64,000 nt of DNA from the sequence record OK272470.1; one strand, given 5' to 3'. Under the pieces are notes generated by a model. That model made no database searches. It saw nothing but the letters and a program-made list of their open reading frames with translations, and had not been told where the DNA came from. How positions within the stretch are numbered: the stretch's first letter is position 1; the number at the start of each line of letters is the position of its first letter. The position numbers and the translations under genes are program-made. Below are positions 10,999-14,607 of this stretch, one piece after another. The stretch is from Escherichia phage JLBYU50.

Positions 10999-11109
10999 AT
11001 GTCTACAGAAATTATTTTTGGCTTATCTGTTTTTATTGCTATTGTATCTTTTGTATGCGGTTATACACTAGGTTACAGATCAAGAAAAAATATTGTAAAA
11101 ACTAGTTGA
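10999..11109 (+). CDS. possible 36-aa single-pass membrane peptide
   Basis: below ORF-track cut-off; AAGGAAACAGT-ATG; hydrophobic core IIFGLSVFIAIVSFVCGYTLGY then basic tail. Confidence 0.25.
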   Translation: MSTEIIFGLSVFIAIVSFVCGYTLGYRSRKNIVKTS

Positions 11110-11135
11110 CAACATAGCTAGTTATTTGCTAAGAT
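11106..11135 (+). promoter_or_regulatory. sigma70-like promoter
   Basis: TTGACA 11106-11111, 18-nt spacer, TAAGAT 11130-11135; upstream of 11165 CDS. Confidence 0.45.
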
Positions 11136-11164: not shown

Positions 11165-11431
11165 ATGACAGAAAATACTTATGGTAAAGAATTGATTGAG
11201 AAGCACGTATTGATTGATAATAAAGGTGGAGCAATCTTTCTTTTTGATCCTGAATCAGTTCTTACTGAAAACGAAAATGGTAGCGTTAGCCTTAAAACAG
11301 AAAGTTTGGTAATTGACTTCCTTGCTCTTCTGGATGAAATGGGGCTTCCTCACGAAGAAGAAGCAGCTATTGCTTTGATTACAGTTCTTCTGGAGAAACG
11401 CGAAGCTGGTGAAATGACCCAGTATGCTTAA
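11165..11431 (+). CDS. hypothetical protein (88 aa)
   Basis: ORF track; AAAAGGAG RBS. Confidence 0.5.
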   Translation: MTENTYGKELIEKHVLIDNKGGAIFLFDPESVLTENENGSVSLKTESLVIDFLALLDEMGLPHEEEAAIALITVLLEKREAGEMTQYA

Positions 11432-11438
11432 TATTCAA

Positions 11439-11514
11439 GGTTCCATAGCTCACTGACGAGAGCGCACACCTCATAAGTGTCGAGGGCAGGGATTGTAACC
11501 CTGGGGAACCACCA
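11439..11514 (+). tRNA. tRNA with CAT anticodon (Met/Ile-type), non-canonical D- and T-loops
   Basis: complete cloverleaf: acceptor GGTTCCA/GGGAACC, D-stem GCTC/GAGC, anticodon loop CTCATAA, T-stem CAGGG/CCCTG, encoded ACCA; T-loop is ATTGTAA rather than TTCRANY. Confidence 0.45.
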
Positions 11515-11545
11515 TTTAAAAGGAGGTGCTATGCATCTCCTATAT

Positions 11546-11631
11546 GCAAGTGTGGTGGAATTGGTGATACACATTGTGCTTAAAACGCAACGCTTAAATG
11601 CTTGAGGGTTCGAATCCCTCCACTTGCACCA
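11546..11631 (+). tRNA. tRNA-Leu (anticodon TAA)
   Basis: acceptor GCAAGTG/CACTTGC, anticodon loop CTTAAAA, long variable arm, T-loop GGTTCGAATCC, ACCA encoded. Confidence 0.8.
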
Positions 11632-11647
11632 ACACCTAAAAAAATAT

Positions 11648-11677
11648 CTTGACATTTACTTAGTTTTTTGTTATAGT
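11648..11677 (+). promoter_or_regulatory. sigma70-like promoter inside tRNA array
   Basis: TTGACA 11648-11653, 18-nt spacer, TATAGT 11672-11677. Confidence 0.45.
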
Positions 11678-11687
11678 TACTATGAAA

Positions 11688-11769
11688 ACGGGGTGTATCT
11701 CACCTGACTTCTAATCAGGCGTTAACCGAGTAATTGGAGTATGCAGGTTCGAATCCTGTCACCCCGGCC
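11688..11769 (+). tRNA. atypical tRNA-like gene, anticodon hairpin reads TCT (Arg-type)
   Basis: perfect acceptor CGGGGTG/CACCCCG, canonical T-arm GCAGG-TTCGAAT-CCTGT, GCCA 3' end, perfect hairpin CCTGA-CTTCTAA-TCAGG; no conventional D-arm fits between acceptor and this hairpin. Confidence 0.4.
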
Positions 11770-11787
11770 AAAAAGTTTTAAAAACTA

Positions 11788-11817
11788 CTTGACAAGCAAG
11801 ATAGTTTTATGTTAGAT
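11788..11817 (+). promoter_or_regulatory. sigma70-like promoter inside tRNA array
   Basis: TTGACA 11788-11793, 18-nt spacer, TAGATT 11812-11817. Confidence 0.4.
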
Positions 11818-11833
11818 TTAAAGTATAATAACT

Positions 11834-11923
11834 GGAAGGTAGGGCGCAGCGGTGCGCAACCAGGTTTGAACCCTGGCCCATTGTAGCGATACGGTGATGG
11901 TTCGACTCCATTATCTTCCTCCA
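11834..11923 (+). tRNA. tRNA-Ser (anticodon TGA)
   Basis: acceptor GGAAGGT/ATCTTCC, anticodon stem CCAGG/CCTGG with loop TTTGAAC, long variable arm, T-loop TTCGACT, TCCA 3' end. Confidence 0.7.
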
Positions 11924-11929
11924 AATTCA

Positions 11930-12094
11930 ATGAGTGATTTTATGAATTATAAAACTATTGGACAGGTTGTTACCGGAGTTAAGATTGTAAATAATAAAGT
12001 TGTTTATGAGTATTCTAATCTTCAACAATCTGAAGATGGTAAGAATATTCGTATGGTAAAAGAAGAACAAAAAGATTCCGGTTGTTTTGAATAA
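11930..12094 (+). CDS. possible small protein (54 aa) between tRNA genes
   Basis: ORF-track ORF 11894..12094 starts inside the tRNA-Ser; first ATG after the tRNA is at 11930; no clear RBS. Confidence 0.25.
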   Translation: MSDFMNYKTIGQVVTGVKIVNNKVVYEYSNLQQSEDGKNIRMVKEEQKDSGCFE

Positions 12095-12102
12095 TTAAAA
12101 AC

Positions 12103-12188
12103 GGTAGATTGGTGAAATGGTAGCCACAACAGTTTGCTAAACTGTCGTCGGAAACGGCGTGTAGGTTCAAGTCCTACATCTACCGCCA
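12103..12188 (+). tRNA. tRNA-Ser (anticodon GCT)
   Basis: acceptor GGTAGAT/ATCTACC, anticodon stem ACAGT/ACTGT loop TTGCTAA, long variable arm, T-arm TAGG-TTCAAGT-CCTA, GCCA. Confidence 0.8.
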
Positions 12189-12315
12189 AGTTATCTTTAA
12201 TGTAGCTTGTCATCTTACTTTAATAGAGTAAACTTTCGGCAGATGGCCCCCCACCATCTTACCGATATCCCATAGTCAAGTGCCGCAAACACTGGCTATT
12301 TTAAAGATAATTTAT

Positions 12316-12391
12316 ACATCGTTAGCTTAGTTGGTAGAGCAAGGGGCTTTTAACTCCAAGGTCGAAGGTTCGAATCCTTCACGATGTACCA
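12316..12391 (+). tRNA. tRNA-Lys (anticodon TTT)
   Basis: acceptor ACATCGT/ACGATGT, D-arm TAGCTTAGTTGGTAGAGC, anticodon loop CTTTTAA, T-loop GGTTCGAATCC, ACCA. Confidence 0.75.
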
Positions 12392-12396
12392 AACAC

Positions 12397-12483
12397 GTAG
12401 GTATCGCATAGCGGCAATTGCTGGAGACTGTAAATCTCTTGCCCTTCGGGGCTTCGTTGGTTCGAGTCCAACTACCTGCACCA
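12397..12483 (+). tRNA. tRNA-Tyr (anticodon GTA)
   Basis: acceptor GTAGGTA/TACCTGC, anticodon loop CTGTAAA, long variable arm, T-arm GTTGG-TTCGAGT-CCAAC, ACCA. Confidence 0.75.
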
Positions 12484-12490
12484 AATTAAA

Positions 12491-12575
12491 GATGGATTGG
12501 CCTAGTGGTTGGGCGACGGACTGTTAATCCGTGAACGAAAGTTCTAGCAAGGTTCAAATCCTTGATCCATCGCCA
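12491..12575 (+). tRNA. tRNA with GTT anticodon (Asn-type) carrying a long variable arm
   Basis: acceptor GATGGAT/ATCCATC, anticodon stem ACGGA/TCCGT loop CTGTTAA, 15-nt variable hairpin GAAC-GAAA-GTTC, T-loop GGTTCAAATCC, GCCA. Confidence 0.55.
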
Positions 12576-12580
12576 AATAG

Positions 12581-12646
12581 TGCTTGTAGAGTTAATAGAA
12601 ACCTCTAGAATTTTCTAGAATTGTAGGTATCAAATCCTACCAAGCA
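12581..12646 (+). other. degenerate tRNA-like remnant
   Basis: acceptor-like TGCTTG/CAAGCA and T-arm-like GTAGG-TATCAAAT-CCTAC, but no foldable anticodon arm and no CCA. Confidence 0.25.
12604..12620. repeat. tandem direct repeat TCTAGAA-TTT-TCTAGAA
   Basis: two copies of TCTAGAA (each containing palindromic TCTAGA) separated by TTT, read directly at 12604-12620. Confidence 0.7.
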
Positions 12647-12654
12647 AATATTTT

Positions 12655-12729
12655 GCTCCTATCGTATAACGGCTATTACGGTTGCCTTGTAAGCAACTTA
12701 TCAGGGTTCGAGTCCTTGTGGGAGCACCA
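12655..12729 (+). tRNA. tRNA-Thr (anticodon TGT)
   Basis: acceptor GCTCCTA/TGGGAGC, anticodon stem GTTGC/GCAAC loop CTTGTAA, T-loop GGGTTCGAGTCC, ACCA. Confidence 0.8.
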
Positions 12730-12751
12730 ATTTAACTCTAAAGGAGTGTAT

Positions 12752-13075
12752 GTGACAGAAAAAGAGTTAGAGGAATATTTTAATATCAATGTTTTCGATG
12801 GTTTTGATGATATTGAAGATGTTGAAAGATATTATGAAGTAGAGTTAGATAAGGATAACATTGTAATTCTTTCTGCAACTTATGATTGTGCATATTATGA
12901 AGGCGAATCTCACGTTTATTTTTATGATATGAAAACATCTTTGTTTTATGAAGTACACGCATATCATTGTTCTTGTTATGGCTTAGAAGGTCAGTGGGAA
13001 CCTGAAGAAATAGGTGATTTGGACTTTACTATTGCATATCTAAACAGACGTGGTGCATCTACTATTTTAAAATAA
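12752..13075 (+). CDS. hypothetical protein (107 aa)
   Basis: ORF-track ORF 12653..13075 starts inside tRNA-Thr; start re-set to in-frame GTG at 12752, 5 nt after AAGGAG. Confidence 0.4.
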   Translation: MTEKELEEYFNINVFDGFDDIEDVERYYEVELDKDNIVILSATYDCAYYEGESHVYFYDMKTSLFYEVHAYHCSCYGLEGQWEPEEIGDLDFTIAYLNRRGASTILK

Positions 13076-13089
13076 ATATCAAAAGCCTC

Positions 13090-13119
13090 TTGACAAAGGG
13101 GCTAATAATATGTTAGAGT
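13090..13119 (+). promoter_or_regulatory. sigma70-like promoter inside tRNA array
   Basis: TTGACA 13090-13095, 18-nt spacer, TAGAGT 13114-13119. Confidence 0.4.
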
Positions 13120-13130
13120 AATATTGTTAA

Positions 13131-13205
13131 GCGGGTATAGTGTTAATGGTAGCATATGAGGTTTCCACCCTCCAGGTGCAGGTTCAAGTCCTGTTACTCG
13201 CTCCA
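13131..13205 (+). tRNA. tRNA-Gly (anticodon TCC)
   Basis: acceptor GCGGGTA/TACTCGC, anticodon loop TTTCCAC, T-arm GCAGG-TTCAAGT-CCTGT, TCCA. Confidence 0.75.
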
Positions 13206-13304
13206 AGATTATTTAAATGGAATCGCTAGAGAAAATTTCTCTTTTCGCTCATGGTTTTCTCCTTCAAACTCTAGCGGTTCTTTTTAAGTGATTTTTAGTT
13301 TTAT

Positions 13305-13379
13305 TGGAGATTAGCCTAGTGGGAAGGCAACGGCCTTTGAAGTCGTGATGACTAGGTTCGATTCCTAGATCTCCAGCCA
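13305..13379 (+). tRNA. tRNA-Gln (anticodon TTG)
   Basis: acceptor TGGAGAT/ATCTCCA, D-arm GCCTAGTGGGAAGGC, anticodon loop CTTTGAA, T-arm CTAGG-TTCGATT-CCTAG, GCCA. Confidence 0.8.
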
Positions 13380-13386
13380 ATATTTA

Positions 13387-13462
13387 CAGTGCGTAGCGCA
13401 GTTGGTAGCGTGGGAGCCTTGGACGCTTCAGGTCGCAGGTTCGAGTCCTGCCGCACTGACCA
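13387..13462 (+). tRNA. tRNA-Pro (anticodon TGG)
   Basis: acceptor CAGTGCG/CGCACTG, D-arm GCGCAGTTGGTAGCGT, anticodon loop CTTGGAC, T-arm GCAGG-TTCGAGT-CCTGC, ACCA. Confidence 0.8.
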
Positions 13463-13467
13463 AATTT

Positions 13468-13542
13468 GCAGAGATAGCTGAGACGGATTAGTGCTACCCT
13501 GAAAAGGTAGAAAGGATGGATCGTTACCATCTCTCTGCACCA
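13468..13542 (+). tRNA. tRNA-Phe (anticodon GAA)
   Basis: acceptor GCAGAGA/TCTCTGC, anticodon stem CTACC/GGTAG loop CTGAAAA, T-stem GATGG/CCATC (loop ATCGTTA), ACCA. Confidence 0.7.
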
Positions 13543-13617
13543 AATATCACCATCCAAGGAGTAGACTTGGTTAACTGTCAATAGCACATTGAGGCTTCTT
13601 ACAGTGGTGTATTTTAT

Positions 13618-13702
13618 GGCTAAGTGGTGGAATGGTATACACGATACGCTTAGAACGTATTGCCCCAAGGGATTGTGAGTTCGAGTCTCACCTTAGCTAC
13701 CA
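13618..13702 (+). tRNA. tRNA-Leu (anticodon TAG)
   Basis: acceptor GGCTAAG/CTTAGCT, anticodon stem ATACG/CGTAT loop CTTAGAA, long variable arm, T-arm GTGAG-TTCGAGT-CTCAC, ACCA. Confidence 0.8.
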
Positions 13703-13780
13703 TATCTAAGAGATATCATAGGGTTTGCAACGGATATCTACCGTCCTGTTAAGGATACCACGCCAAGACGGGTTATAAAG

Positions 13781-13856
13781 GGTTAGCCATTGATAGTGTG
13801 AAGCTGGCGTTTCGAGTGCTTTCATAAGGCATTGCGAGAAGAGTTCGATCCTCTTA
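13781..13856 (+). tRNA. tRNA with CAT anticodon (Met or Ile-lysidine type)
   Basis: perfect acceptor TGATAGT/ACTATCA, anticodon loop TTCATAA, T-arm AAGAG-TTCGATC-CTCTT, ACCA. Confidence 0.65.
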
Positions 13857-13871
13857 CTATCAACCAAATTA

Positions 13872-13950
13872 TTACAGATTGTGCGGGATAGAGGAGTCTG
13901 GTCGTCCTCGCCAGTTTCATATGCTGGAGATCATCGGTTCGAATCCGATT
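13872..13950 (+). tRNA. tRNA with CAT anticodon (Met or Ile-lysidine type), 1:72 mismatch
   Basis: acceptor TGCGGGA/TCCCGCC with unpaired first position, anticodon loop TTCATAT, T-arm ATCGG-TTCGAAT-CCGAT, TCCA. Confidence 0.6.
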
Positions 13951-13994
13951 CCCGCCTCCAATAAATACCTCCCTTCTGGTGTAATGATTAAGTT

Positions 13995-14091
13995 ACATTG
14001 ACACTTCAAGGAACTCATAGCCGGGTAGATTTAAAAGAGTATGGTACTCAATATGGCTCCAAACCATAGATCAGGGGGTTCGATTCCTCAC
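13995..14091 (+). tRNA. tRNA-like element with Trp-type anticodon arm (CCA); 5' half non-canonical
   Basis: perfect anticodon arm TATGG-CTCCAAA-CCATA, T-loop GGTTCGATTCC, GCCA 3' end; no 7-bp acceptor partner at the expected distance, only a 5-bp CAAGG/CCTTG pairing about 40 nt upstream. Confidence 0.35.
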
Positions 14092-14106
14092 CTTGCTGCC
14101 AATTAT

Positions 14107-14182
14107 TGTGGTATCGTACAGATGGTTAGTACACTCGACCGATAATCGAGAAACAACGGTTCGACTCCGTTTACCACGACCA
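14107..14182 (+). tRNA. tRNA-Ile (anticodon GAT)
   Basis: acceptor TGTGGTA/TACCACG, D-arm GTAC-AGATGGTTA-GTAC, anticodon stem CTCGA/TCGAG loop CCGATAA, T-arm AACGG-TTCGACT-CCGTT, ACCA. Confidence 0.75.
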
Positions 14183-14293
14183 AACTCCGTGCCAGCGGTG
14201 TCTTCGAAGAACAAGCCTAGTTCCTTCTGAGATGGAGGGGTGCGACTCCTTAACGCACAATATACTACTACTAAATACTTATCAGGAGATATC

Positions 14294-14563
14294 ATGTATA
14301 CTTTAAAAGTAATTCGCAAGTTTCCTCAAGAAGAGGAAGTAAGAATTTATAACACTGTACCATTCGTAGTAAATGAAGAAGAATTCTTTTATTGCTTAGA
14401 AGATGAAGTAATTATTCAATATCATTGGGAAGGTTACGACAGACAAGATGGTGTTGTAGCTTCTGTGCTTGCTGGTGATAGAGTGTTATTCATTCACAAG
14501 ACTGAATCAGCATATCTAATGAATGATAAAGGACAAACTGTTAAAGTAATTAACAGACCATAA
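14294..14563 (+). CDS. hypothetical protein (89 aa)
   Basis: ORF-track frame; start re-set to ATG 14294 preceded by AGGAGA RBS. Confidence 0.5.
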   Translation: MYTLKVIRKFPQEEEVRIYNTVPFVVNEEEFFYCLEDEVIIQYHWEGYDRQDGVVASVLAGDRVLFIHKTESAYLMNDKGQTVKVINRP

Positions 14564-14574
14564 AGAATTTTATA

Positions 14575-14607
14575 AAAGCCTCCTTTTTGGAGGTTTTTTA
14601 TTATCTA
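14575..14607 (+). terminator. rho-independent terminator
   Basis: GCCTCC-TTTTT-GGAGG stem-loop followed by TTTTTTATTAT. Confidence 0.6.

Follow-up and report, generated by a model that had tools for sequence, protein, structure and literature searches.

The window analysed here is a stretch of 64,000 nucleotides (nt) from Escherichia phage JLBYU50 (sequence record OK272470.1), and it holds a dense array of tRNA genes at 11439-14182. As judged from sequence comparison, at least two of the atypical elements in this array are conserved, structurally non-canonical tRNAs, and one of them, a tRNA-Arg(UCU) at 11689-11770 (hereafter Arg 11689), has a rewired core. The reading that we consider quite probable is that of the tRNA array of an AT-rich, phi92-like phage, with 18 tRNA-type genes, that serves codon supply and whose AGA decoder has a permuted core.

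A tRNA-Arg(UCU) with a rewired core

ARAGORN, run over the whole window, makes no call at 11689-11770, and an Rfam scan at the gathering threshold places a tRNA at 11689-11767 with 38.6 bits. Several parts of this RNA are those of an ordinary tRNA. The acceptor stem has 7 base pairs (bp; positions 1-7/72-78, CGGGGUG/CACCCCG) and is followed by G73 and CCA, and the T arm reads GCAGG-UUCGAAU-CCUGU, giving the combination of a 7-bp acceptor with a 5-bp T stem and a 7-nt UUCRANY loop. In the anticodon arm (positions 15-31, CCUGA-CUUCUAA-UCAGG, anticodon UCU), the stem has the canonical 5 bp and the 7-nt loop carries U33 and purine 37, and both the T arm and the anticodon loop are nearly equal to those of E. 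coli argU. The connection between these arms is not that of a cloverleaf. After U8, A9 and U10, positions 11-13 pair with 40-42 in a 3-bp helix around the anticodon arm; a 7-nt bulge, CGUUAAC, and a D-loop-like segment, UAAUUGGAGUAU, then lead into the T arm. There are 7 nt (UAUCUCA) from the acceptor to the anticodon stem and 23 nt from the anticodon to the T stem, and the canonical D hairpin (10-13/22-25 with its loop) is absent, with the long-range pairing of 11-13 with 40-42 in its place.

A first alignment of six phage groups displayed compensatory changes in all three stems and suggested a CUC/GAG pairing flanking the anticodon arm, which is replaced by CGC/GCG in the copy from a Streptomyces phage. 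A larger sample came from scans of IMG/VR, which gave 21 and then 60 unique sequences. Across these 60, the whole structure is 94.4% paired, compared with 64% for shuffled partners and 34-46% for slid partners. The acceptor is 99.3% paired and covaries at six of its seven pairs, the T stem is 98.7% paired, and the anticodon stem covaries at all five pairs, with the loop CUUCUAA present in 49 of 61 unique sequences. Within the 3-bp helix, pair 12:41 occurs as UA (37 sequences), AU (12), GC (10) and CG (1), and pair 13:40 as CG (48), GC (7) and UA (5), with none unpaired at either position. These results indicate that the rewired structure predicted for Arg 11689 is well supported. A local hairpin that RNAfold places in the 23-nt region of the window copy (CCGA-GUAA-UUGG) was rejected; it is lost in L016, L018 and Enygma, where the long-range helix stays.

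Proposed permuted order of the core, and identity elements

In chain order, U8-A9-U10 is followed by a strand that leads without a break into the 5' half of the anticodon stem and takes the place of canonical positions 22/23-25. The anticodon arm is followed on its 3' side by the conserved linker CGUUAAY (7 nt), by the partner of the first strand, which stands in for positions 10-13, and then by the segment UAAYUGGAGUAU and the T stem. We read this segment as N13, A14, A15, Y16, U17, G18, G19, A20, G, U, A21 and U48, and the rewired core would then be, in effect, a circular permutation of canonical positions 10-47 with a new start at 22. Kept under this assignment are U8-A14, the R15-Y48 Levitt pair, G18/G19 for the T loop and A20, as well as the 7/5 acceptor-T minihelix, the anticodon loop and purine 73. 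The Levitt-like pair covaries when the class is taken as a whole: the 60 sequences of the window's subtype all have A-U, three other class members have G-C, and in a sister subtype described below it is A-U in 63 and G-C in 15 among the matches listed. An L-shaped fold of this RNA is plausible, since nothing that the canonical contacts in core and elbow require has been lost; the evidence for it is indirect, namely the conserved equivalents of U8, A14, G18, G19 and A21 and the covariation of the R15-Y48-like pair.

For E. coli ArgRS, A20 is a major identity element, together with C35, U36 (or G36) and A/G73. The E. coli tRNA-Arg identity set is present in full in Arg 11689, as A20 within the GGA motif, the UCU anticodon and the G discriminator, and most members of the rewired class have G or A as discriminator.

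According to PMC11551756, known bacterial tRNAs are all cloverleaves, and a tRNA that lacks the D arm can work with EF-Tu, the ribosome and HisRS of E. coli. Mitochondrial tRNA-Ser(AGY/AGN), which lacks a D arm, and the engineered 'mini HisT' used by E. coli resemble the rewired Arg in having no D hairpin between acceptor and anticodon arms and an extended anticodon helix. In contrast with these D-armless tRNAs, the phage RNAs keep the GG segment, U8, A14, R15-Y48 and A20, moved 3' of the anticodon arm, and at 82 nt they are longer than normal instead of miniaturised. The permuted tRNA genes of Cyanidioschyzon merolae share the trait of a permuted tRNA sequence order, but their permutation affects the acceptor ends and is undone by processing, which yields a canonical mature tRNA (PMC3978253), whereas the rewired Arg has its 5' and 3' acceptor strands in the usual order and carries a permanent permutation inside the molecule (D plus anticodon module).

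Distribution and anticodons of the rewired class

Homologues of Arg 11689, defined as full-length matches covering at least 80% of the query, were found in 240 phage records from groups that include Justusliebigvirus, Felixounavirus, Sugarlandvirus, Mydovirus, 310-360-kb jumbo phages and one Streptomyces phage. Nearly all of these copies are unannotated, as are most of those in the window's relatives; the record of phage Antha says 'tRNA-OTHER', and none of the records listed gives the element an interpretation. A pattern search with the anticodon left free returned 61 unique viral matches, 60 with UCU and one with CCU, and the same pattern in 185,579 bacterial and archaeal species (one genome each) matched five contigs, all of them from metagenome-assembled genomes. 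At the 92 loci with the UCU form, arrays of 20-28 tRNAs otherwise hold CGN-reading Arg tRNAs only.

A covariance model built from the 60 sequences was searched over 96 loci gathered for another purpose, and returned matches of 38-52 bits with the same wiring and with the anticodons GAU and UAU (Ile) and ACG (Arg). A scan for the sister subtype with the pattern UAUACC...GAAAGGUUA, the counts from which are lower bounds, yielded at least 86 unique well-formed members among the matches listed (GAU 32, ACG 30, UAU 18, UCU 5 and CAU 1). Over both subtypes, more than 140 unique sequences support the rewired core by covariation, and among the matches listed the anticodons of the class are those of Arg (UCU, CCU, ACG) and Ile (GAU, UAU), with one CAU (loci L218-L297 and others). 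From these searches the class appears to be large and phage-only, and was found almost never in cellular genomes. A literature search found no description of the rewired architecture anywhere; its coverage of subscription journals was thin, which makes this weak evidence.

At one locus (L065, minus strand, about 1520-1700) a canonical Arg(UCU) gene immediately adjoins the rewired one. This pair fits a tandem duplication followed by trimming, or else separate roles of the two forms.

Probable codon supply by the array

The region surrounding Arg 11689 is the tRNA array of a phi92-like E. coli myophage (Justusliebigvirus, Stephanstirmvirinae) and, as an array, is known and ordinary. It shares locus, gene order, anticodons and 97-99% DNA identity with the clusters of this group, whose records annotate the array gene by gene; T4, T5 and Felix O1 also have known arrays. 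The arrays of relatives are likewise dense and interspersed with small open reading frames (ORFs), and in some relatives also with homing endonucleases. Syntenic arrays with other gene content occur in more distant relatives (phAPEC8, Klebsiella phage phi1_175008 and PVP-SE1), and relatives' arrays hold extra tRNAs (Asp, Glu, Val, Ala) that are missing from the window.

ARAGORN called 16 tRNA genes, all on the + strand within 11439-14182 and each with an encoded CCA, and zero tRNAs outside these limits in the 64-kb window. The Rfam scan gave 14 tRNAs; Met 11439, Ser-TGA 11834 and Met 13791 are not among them, and the tRNA at 11689-11767 is the one that it adds to the ARAGORN set. With Arg-TCT 11689 and a Trp-CCA-like gene at 14019, the total comes to 18 tRNA-type genes, besides which there is one tRNA-like relic without an anticodon loop (12581-12646). 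An earlier note on this DNA, made from the letters alone, had described a dense array of about 19 genes, most of them encoding CCA and three of them carrying a CAT anticodon. The count proved close, the anticodons that it listed were all recovered by ARAGORN, and the three CAT genes are present at 11439, 13791 and 13882; for the last two the note had given starts of 13781 and 13872, each 10 nt too early.

The GC content of the window is 38%. Codon use in 40 non-overlapping ORFs of at least 150 codons was compared with an E. coli K-12 table, and the codons most enriched in the phage were ACA (3.5-fold), AGA (3.0-fold), ACU (2.8-fold), CUA (2.5-fold) and CCU (2.4-fold), followed by UCU, GUA and CCA. 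A matching phage tRNA is encoded for nine of the ten most enriched codons, GUA being the one without. Nine of the 17 identified elongators have anticodons that start with U (Thr-UGU, Leu-UAG, Pro-UGG, Ser-UGA, Gly-UCC, Gln-UUG, Leu-UAA, Lys-UUU and Arg-UCU), and these nine read just the A-ending codons that are enriched in the phage. This is the classic codon-compensation pattern, and in the comparison of phage and host codon usage that had been suggested as a check the anticodon set tracks the phage-enriched codons closely.

The sole candidate for an AGA reader in the array is the rewired Arg. Because the other Arg tRNAs in such arrays read CGN, and AGA is enriched three-fold, 'AGA decoder' is the most economical reading of this RNA. 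The main job of the array would then be to provide decoders for ACA, AGA, CUA, CCU/CCA, UCU/UCA, GGA, CAA and UUA, codons over-used relative to the host, and the AGA decoder would be the non-cloverleaf 82-nt RNA at 11689-11770, with its permuted core and presumed L-shape. We infer that it would be processed by RNase P, charged by host ArgRS and used on the ribosome.

Alternatives to codon supply, and a proposed class of working tRNAs

The earlier note had proposed that the array supplies isoacceptors that escape tRNA-targeting nucleases or translation shut-off, and had suggested comparing the anticodon loops with those of the host at nuclease recognition sites. The Lys, Tyr, Asn and Arg(UCU) tRNAs of the phage have the same 7-nt anticodon loops as E. 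coli K-12 lysT, tyrT, asnT and argU, with none of the four differing at such sites, and the Asn anticodon stem-loop equals that of host asnT except at position 27. As all four loops are host-identical, the 'mutated loop' signature known for other phages is absent, and the escape proposal gains no support from the sequence, the anticodon set also fitting codon compensation very well. Replenishment of cleaved host tRNAs by over-expression is possible. More generally, the array might replace, or give resistant forms of, host tRNAs that are cut by PrrC, RloC, PARIS, retron effectors or colicin-like toxins, and the odd bodies of some of its tRNAs (the rewired Arg and, as described below, a long-arm Asn, an 8/4 Ser and a Trp with a minimal D arm) would hide them from nucleases. 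There is precedent for such a supply: T5-like phages are protected from retron-Eco7 and PrrC by tRNA-Tyr and tRNA-Lys of their own, and one T5 tRNA neutralises PARIS (PMC11555353). In the window, the Lys, Tyr and Asn genes adjoin, strong promoters could raise copy number, and the body architecture of at least four tRNAs departs from that of the host; all the same, loop-recognising enzymes would still cut the host-identical Lys, Tyr, Asn and Arg loops, and the anticodon set closely tracks the differences in codon usage. We also know of no defence system that targets Arg(UCU) or Ile tRNAs via the D arm, and we regard an anti-defence role as rather unlikely.

A function outside decoding strikes us as improbable. 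The rewired Arg and Ile RNAs would in that case be tRNA mimics that capture a synthetase, modification enzyme or nuclease as decoy or sponge, or that act in processing or regulation, and the presence of other tRNA-shaped RNAs in the same array is in keeping with this, as is the limitation to two amino-acid identities among the matches listed, which could point to a specific protein partner, and the retention at two loci of a canonical Arg(TCT) beside the rewired one. However, the anticodon loop, U33, purine 37, the 7/5 acceptor-T helix and the discriminator are all kept, CCA is encoded in most copies, and the RNA is usually the sole AGA reader in arrays of 20-28 tRNAs, with AGA three-fold enriched in the window phage.

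In its fullest form, the decoder reading holds that phages of many lineages (phi92-like, Felix O1-like, T5-related, jumbo and Streptomyces phages) encode an undescribed, Arg/Ile-only class of working tRNAs with a circularly permuted D/anticodon module. The RNA at 11689-11770 would serve this phage as AGA decoder, with E. coli ArgRS charging it and ribosomes of E. coli using it, and would be the first natural non-cloverleaf tRNA known in bacterial translation. We put this forward tentatively, as a proposal for which the balance is close but falls slightly short of even. Several points weigh against the main reading, of a codon-supplying array with a rewired AGA decoder. RNAalifold does not predict the 3-bp helix, the support for which is covariation only, and it was because of this failure that pair counts were used for the helix. 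The search pattern fixed C11-G42 and part of the D-loop-like segment, and invariance at these positions is partly by construction and uninformative. Rewired and canonical Arg(TCT) genes occur together at 2 of the 92 loci, and the two forms could be non-equivalent. The codon comparison depends on the accuracy of the host table used, and two of the CAT genes, Met 11439 and the gene at 13882, may be non-functional.

Other tRNAs of unusual architecture

The Ser(UGA) tRNA at 11834 combines an acceptor of 8 bp with a T stem of 4 bp; its D stem of 5 bp is capped by a 4-nt loop, its variable arm has 7 bp and position 73 is U, and it scores better under the tRNA-Sec model than under the tRNA model. Its D arm (GCGCA-GCGG-UGCGC) has the phage covariants GGCUA/UAGCC, GCGUA/UACGC and GUCCA/UGGAC. 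The eighth acceptor pair is A8-U65 in the window, and in two homologous loci positions 8 and 65 pair where 49:65 cannot (G8-C65 with A49 in L006, A8-U65 with C49 in L180). Both sets of features of an (8/4) tRNA-Ser are thus present, the 8-bp acceptor with 4-bp T stem and the Sec-like D arm with long variable arm and G/U73. tRNA-Ser of this kind have been reported from phages (Mukai et al. 2017, PMC5389517), and the window gene shares acceptor, T stem, D arm, variable arm and U73 with the allo-tRNA/tRNA-Ser described there; unlike allo-tRNA, it carries a normal serine anticodon, and no recoding is implied. The (8/4) architecture does not describe the rewired Arg.

The Asn(GUU) tRNA at 12491 has a long variable arm, formed by a 4-bp stem with a GAAA loop (GAAC-GAAA-GUUC), and G73. 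Covariants of the arm in phAPEC8, the Klebsiella phage and PVP-SE1 read GUUC/GAAC, GAGA/UCUC, GAGU/ACUC and GAGC/GCUC. It therefore has the variable stem-loop of a class II tRNA, and its isotype, by the GUU anticodon, is not Leu, Ser or Tyr. A viral scan for long-arm Asn returned 119 stretches, with 92 unique GUU tRNAs of at least 82 nt, and the literature search, with the same thin coverage of subscription journals that makes its silence weak evidence, found no description of a long-arm phage tRNA-Asn. The E. coli Asn identity set consists of G34, U35, U36 and G73, and the phage RNA is probably charged as Asn. We also considered whether it could be a serine-accepting missense tRNA derived from Ser(GCU) or Tyr(GUA); the variable-arm format, common to the phage's own Ser(GCU), and G73 are in line with this, but the full host Asn anticodon arm argues against it; some cross-charging by SerRS is possible. 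The nematode nev-tRNAs likewise combine a long variable arm with a non-Leu/Ser/Tyr anticodon, but these are charged with Leu against their anticodon (PMC3333845), whereas the phage Asn keeps the E. coli Asn identity set.

The Trp-like gene at 14019 received no ARAGORN call and is unannotated in the genus records examined; its PVP-SE1 homologue is annotated tRNA-Trp. It has the acceptor AGCCGGG/CCUUGCU with a C4xU69 mismatch, directly after the acceptor stem a connector of 11 nt, then a 5-bp D stem capped by the 3-nt loop UGG, the anticodon loop CUCCAAA, G73 and CCA. Compensatory variants of the D stem include GAGUA/UACUC, GAGCG/CGCUC, UGCAG/CUGCA and UCUUC/GAAGA. The C4xU69 mismatch is kept across homologues (L006, L119, L144 and L210), although pairs 1-3 vary, and several homologues (PVP-SE1, L005 and L119) have an apparent 4-bp anticodon stem.

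Short tRNA-Leu of 76-79 nt, without a long variable arm, occur in Felixounavirus (L004 3668-3744, 4247-4324 and 5069-5147), L006, L009, L010 and others, and other viral contigs hold Lys(UUU) and Glu(UUC) tRNAs of 85-89 nt with long arms. Swaps between short-arm and long-arm tRNA classes seem to be common in phage arrays. Two Lys genes of relatives are also unusual. The phi92 reference gene (L002 2724-2799) has a 6-nt anticodon loop, for which ARAGORN gives the 2-base anticodon 'tt', in contrast with the normal loop (CUUUUAA) of the window and phage Paula. In PVP-SE1, ARAGORN leaves the type of an 86-nt gene annotated tRNA-Lys (L006 3348-3433) undetermined and gives it the 4-base anticodon 'ggca'; there is a CUUUUAA loop farther along the sequence, and the gene resembles a Lys tRNA that has gained an insertion ahead of its anticodon arm.

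CAT genes and an exchanged T-loop pair

Met 11439 has a D loop without GG, the T loop ATTGTAA (A54/U58), a 7:66 mismatch and a 4-bp anticodon stem, and its homologues are confined to Justusliebigvirus loci; its standing as a functional tRNA appears doubtful. The CAT gene at 13791, which is absent from phi92 itself, has A73, U4:A69 and A5:U68, as in E. coli elongator Met. The third, at 13882, combines a U1xC72 mismatch with a D stem (GAGG/CCUC) containing A11:U24, both of them initiator hallmarks, and by eye its D arm resembles that of E. coli fMet. Its anticodon stem is CCAGU/GCUGG, without the three G-C pairs of initiators, with the loop UUCAUAU and U73; we regard it as initiator-derived, with an uncertain function. 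The earlier note had matched the CAT genes to the trio of initiator Met, elongator Met and lysidine-modified Ile. This assignment is plausible, and its initiator part is consistent with the hallmarks of 13882, while for 11439 and 13791 sequence does not assign Met versus Ile2.

In Phe 13468 (T loop AUCGUUA), as in Met 11439, A54/U58 replaces U54/A58. A count over 1581 unique phage tRNAs gives U/A at positions 54/58 in 1501, A/U in 51 and all other states in 29, which makes A/U the second commonest state and a coordinated reverse-Hoogsteen swap across many isotypes. Since 51 of 1581 phage tRNAs share it, the swap in Phe is a recurrent variant and not damage.

That the non-canonical elements (Arg 11689, the Trp-like 14019, Met 11439, Ser-TGA and Phe) are decaying pseudogenes of a larger ancestral array is very unlikely, despite the pseudogene flags given to Ser-TGA and Phe in phi92, where Met 11439 is a 'hypothetical tRNA', and to one CAT gene in phAPEC8, the genuine relic at 12581-12646, the Asp, Glu, Val and Ala tRNAs found in relatives and missing here, and the confinement of Met 11439 to one genus: covariation, in every stem of the rewired Arg across at least 60 unique sequences from unrelated phage groups, in the Trp-like D hairpin, in the Ser-TGA D stem and 8:65 pair and in the Asn variable arm, largely refutes it for these four, the rewired Arg has its own near-consensus promoter, and the A54/U58 swap recurs.

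Promoters, spacer RNAs and coordinates

Promoters were scored as matches out of 12 to the sigma70 consensus. The best of the region is the near-consensus promoter at 11649, which ends 11 nt upstream of the rewired Arg. Internal sigma70-like promoters had been noted earlier at 11648, 11788 and 13090, and the scan bears these out, with TTGACA-type promoters at 11649, 11789 and 13090. A candidate at 13999 was rejected; its TTGACA has a 22-nt spacer, the promoter scan leaves it uncalled, and it overlaps the Trp-like gene. The terminator at 14574-14598 is likely the end of the last transcription unit. Under the reading given at the outset, and with the same good probability, the array would fall into at least four units driven by sigma70 promoters, with two small ORFs and some spacer RNAs of defined structure lying between the tRNA genes (Table 1).

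The RNA that exactly fills the Ser(GCU)-Lys spacer is about 122 nt long and folds into a 17-bp closing stem with three hairpins, with compensatory changes relative to phAPEC8 in the alignment fold, and it has no match in Rfam. The tRNA cluster of T4 likewise encodes stable RNAs other than tRNAs, of which this RNA is reminiscent. In the hairpin at 13207-13293, the stems covary relative to Klebsiella-phage homologues and an interior of about 35 nt is almost invariant; phi92 has an insertion just downstream of it. The relic at 12581-12646 has compensatory stem changes in phAPEC8 and L042, and may be a processing signal and not a decoder. No significant or conserved fold was found in the spacers 13543-13617, 13703-13790 and 14183-14270. 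Downstream of Ile(GAU), 14183-14262 shares 90% identity with phAPEC8 and 82% with the Klebsiella phage, and has neither a significant fold nor tRNA features.

Table 1. Features of the tRNA array and its flanks, in window coordinates
Feature	Coordinates	Strand	Evidence
sigma70-like promoter upstream of small ORF 11165-11431 and first tRNAs	11106-11135	+	TTGACA-18-TAAGAT, 10/12, TG before -10
tRNA-Met(CAT) no. 1, doubtful	11439-11514	+	ARAGORN; without tRNA-model match in Rfam scans
Strong 9-bp hairpin between Met and Leu	11521-11541	+	z-score -4.55; annotated terminator in phage Paula
tRNA-Leu(TAA), class II	11546-11631	+	ARAGORN, Rfam
Promoter ending 11 nt before rewired Arg tRNA	11649-11677	+	TTGACA-17-TATAGT, 11/12, extended -10
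Rewired-core tRNA-Arg(UCU), 82 nt	11689-11770	+	Rfam tRNA model 38.6 bits; covariation; own covariance model 100 bits
Promoter upstream of Ser(TGA)	11789-11818	+	10/12
tRNA-Ser(UGA), 8/4 Sec-like	11834-11923	+	ARAGORN; tRNA-Sec model 35 bits; covariation
Small ORF, Phi92_gp111 homologue	11942-12094	+	Homology
tRNA-Ser(GCT)	12103-12188	+	ARAGORN, Rfam
Conserved four-way-junction RNA, Ser(GCU)-Lys spacer	12190-12311	+	z-score -4.91; alifold
tRNA-Lys(TTT)	12316-12391	+	ARAGORN, Rfam, host-loop comparison
tRNA-Tyr(GTA), class II	12397-12483	+	ARAGORN, Rfam, host-loop comparison
tRNA-Asn(GUU), long variable arm	12491-12575	+	ARAGORN; compensatory changes
tRNA-like relic	12581-12646	+	Acceptor-like and T-arm-like stems covary; without 7-nt anticodon loop, without CCA
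tRNA-Thr(TGT)	12655-12729	+	ARAGORN, Rfam
ORF, Phi92_gp112 homologue	12752-13075	+	Homology
Promoter upstream of Gly	13090-13119	+	10/12
tRNA-Gly(TCC)	13131-13205	+	ARAGORN, Rfam
Conserved long hairpin	13207-13293	+	z-score -4.13; stem covariation
tRNA-Gln(TTG)	13305-13379	+	ARAGORN, Rfam
tRNA-Pro(TGG)	13387-13462	+	ARAGORN, Rfam
tRNA-Phe(GAA), T loop AUCGUUA	13468-13542	+	ARAGORN, Rfam
tRNA-Leu(TAG), class II	13618-13702	+	ARAGORN, Rfam
tRNA(CAT) no. 2, elongator Met or Ile2	13791-13866	+	ARAGORN; A73, U4:A69, A5:U68
tRNA(CAT) no. 3, initiator-like	13882-13960	+	ARAGORN, Rfam; 'tRNA-Pseudo-CAT' in phAPEC8
tRNA-Trp(CCA)-like, unannotated	14019-14101	+	Homologues with compensatory changes; tRNA-Sec model only 22 bits
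tRNA-Ile(GAT)	14107-14182	+	ARAGORN, Rfam
Intrinsic terminator after ORF 14294-14563	14574-14598	+	Promoter/terminator scan; annotated terminator in Paula

Implications

The array as such is routine, being annotated in dozens of phi92-like genomes and following the usual logic of codon compensation, and its significance lies in the rewired Arg inside it, a promoter-driven gene from an E. coli phage group that is well studied. The restriction of the class to Arg and Ile poses a concrete, testable puzzle. If Arg 11689 is charged and decodes AGA, a permuted chain can build the L-shape, and ArgRS, IleRS, RNase P, EF-Tu and the ribosome would all tolerate a rewired core. Standard tRNA finders would then systematically under-count phage tRNAs, since ARAGORN misses this RNA and one record calls it 'tRNA-OTHER', and the class would offer a natural scaffold for the design of orthogonal tRNAs.

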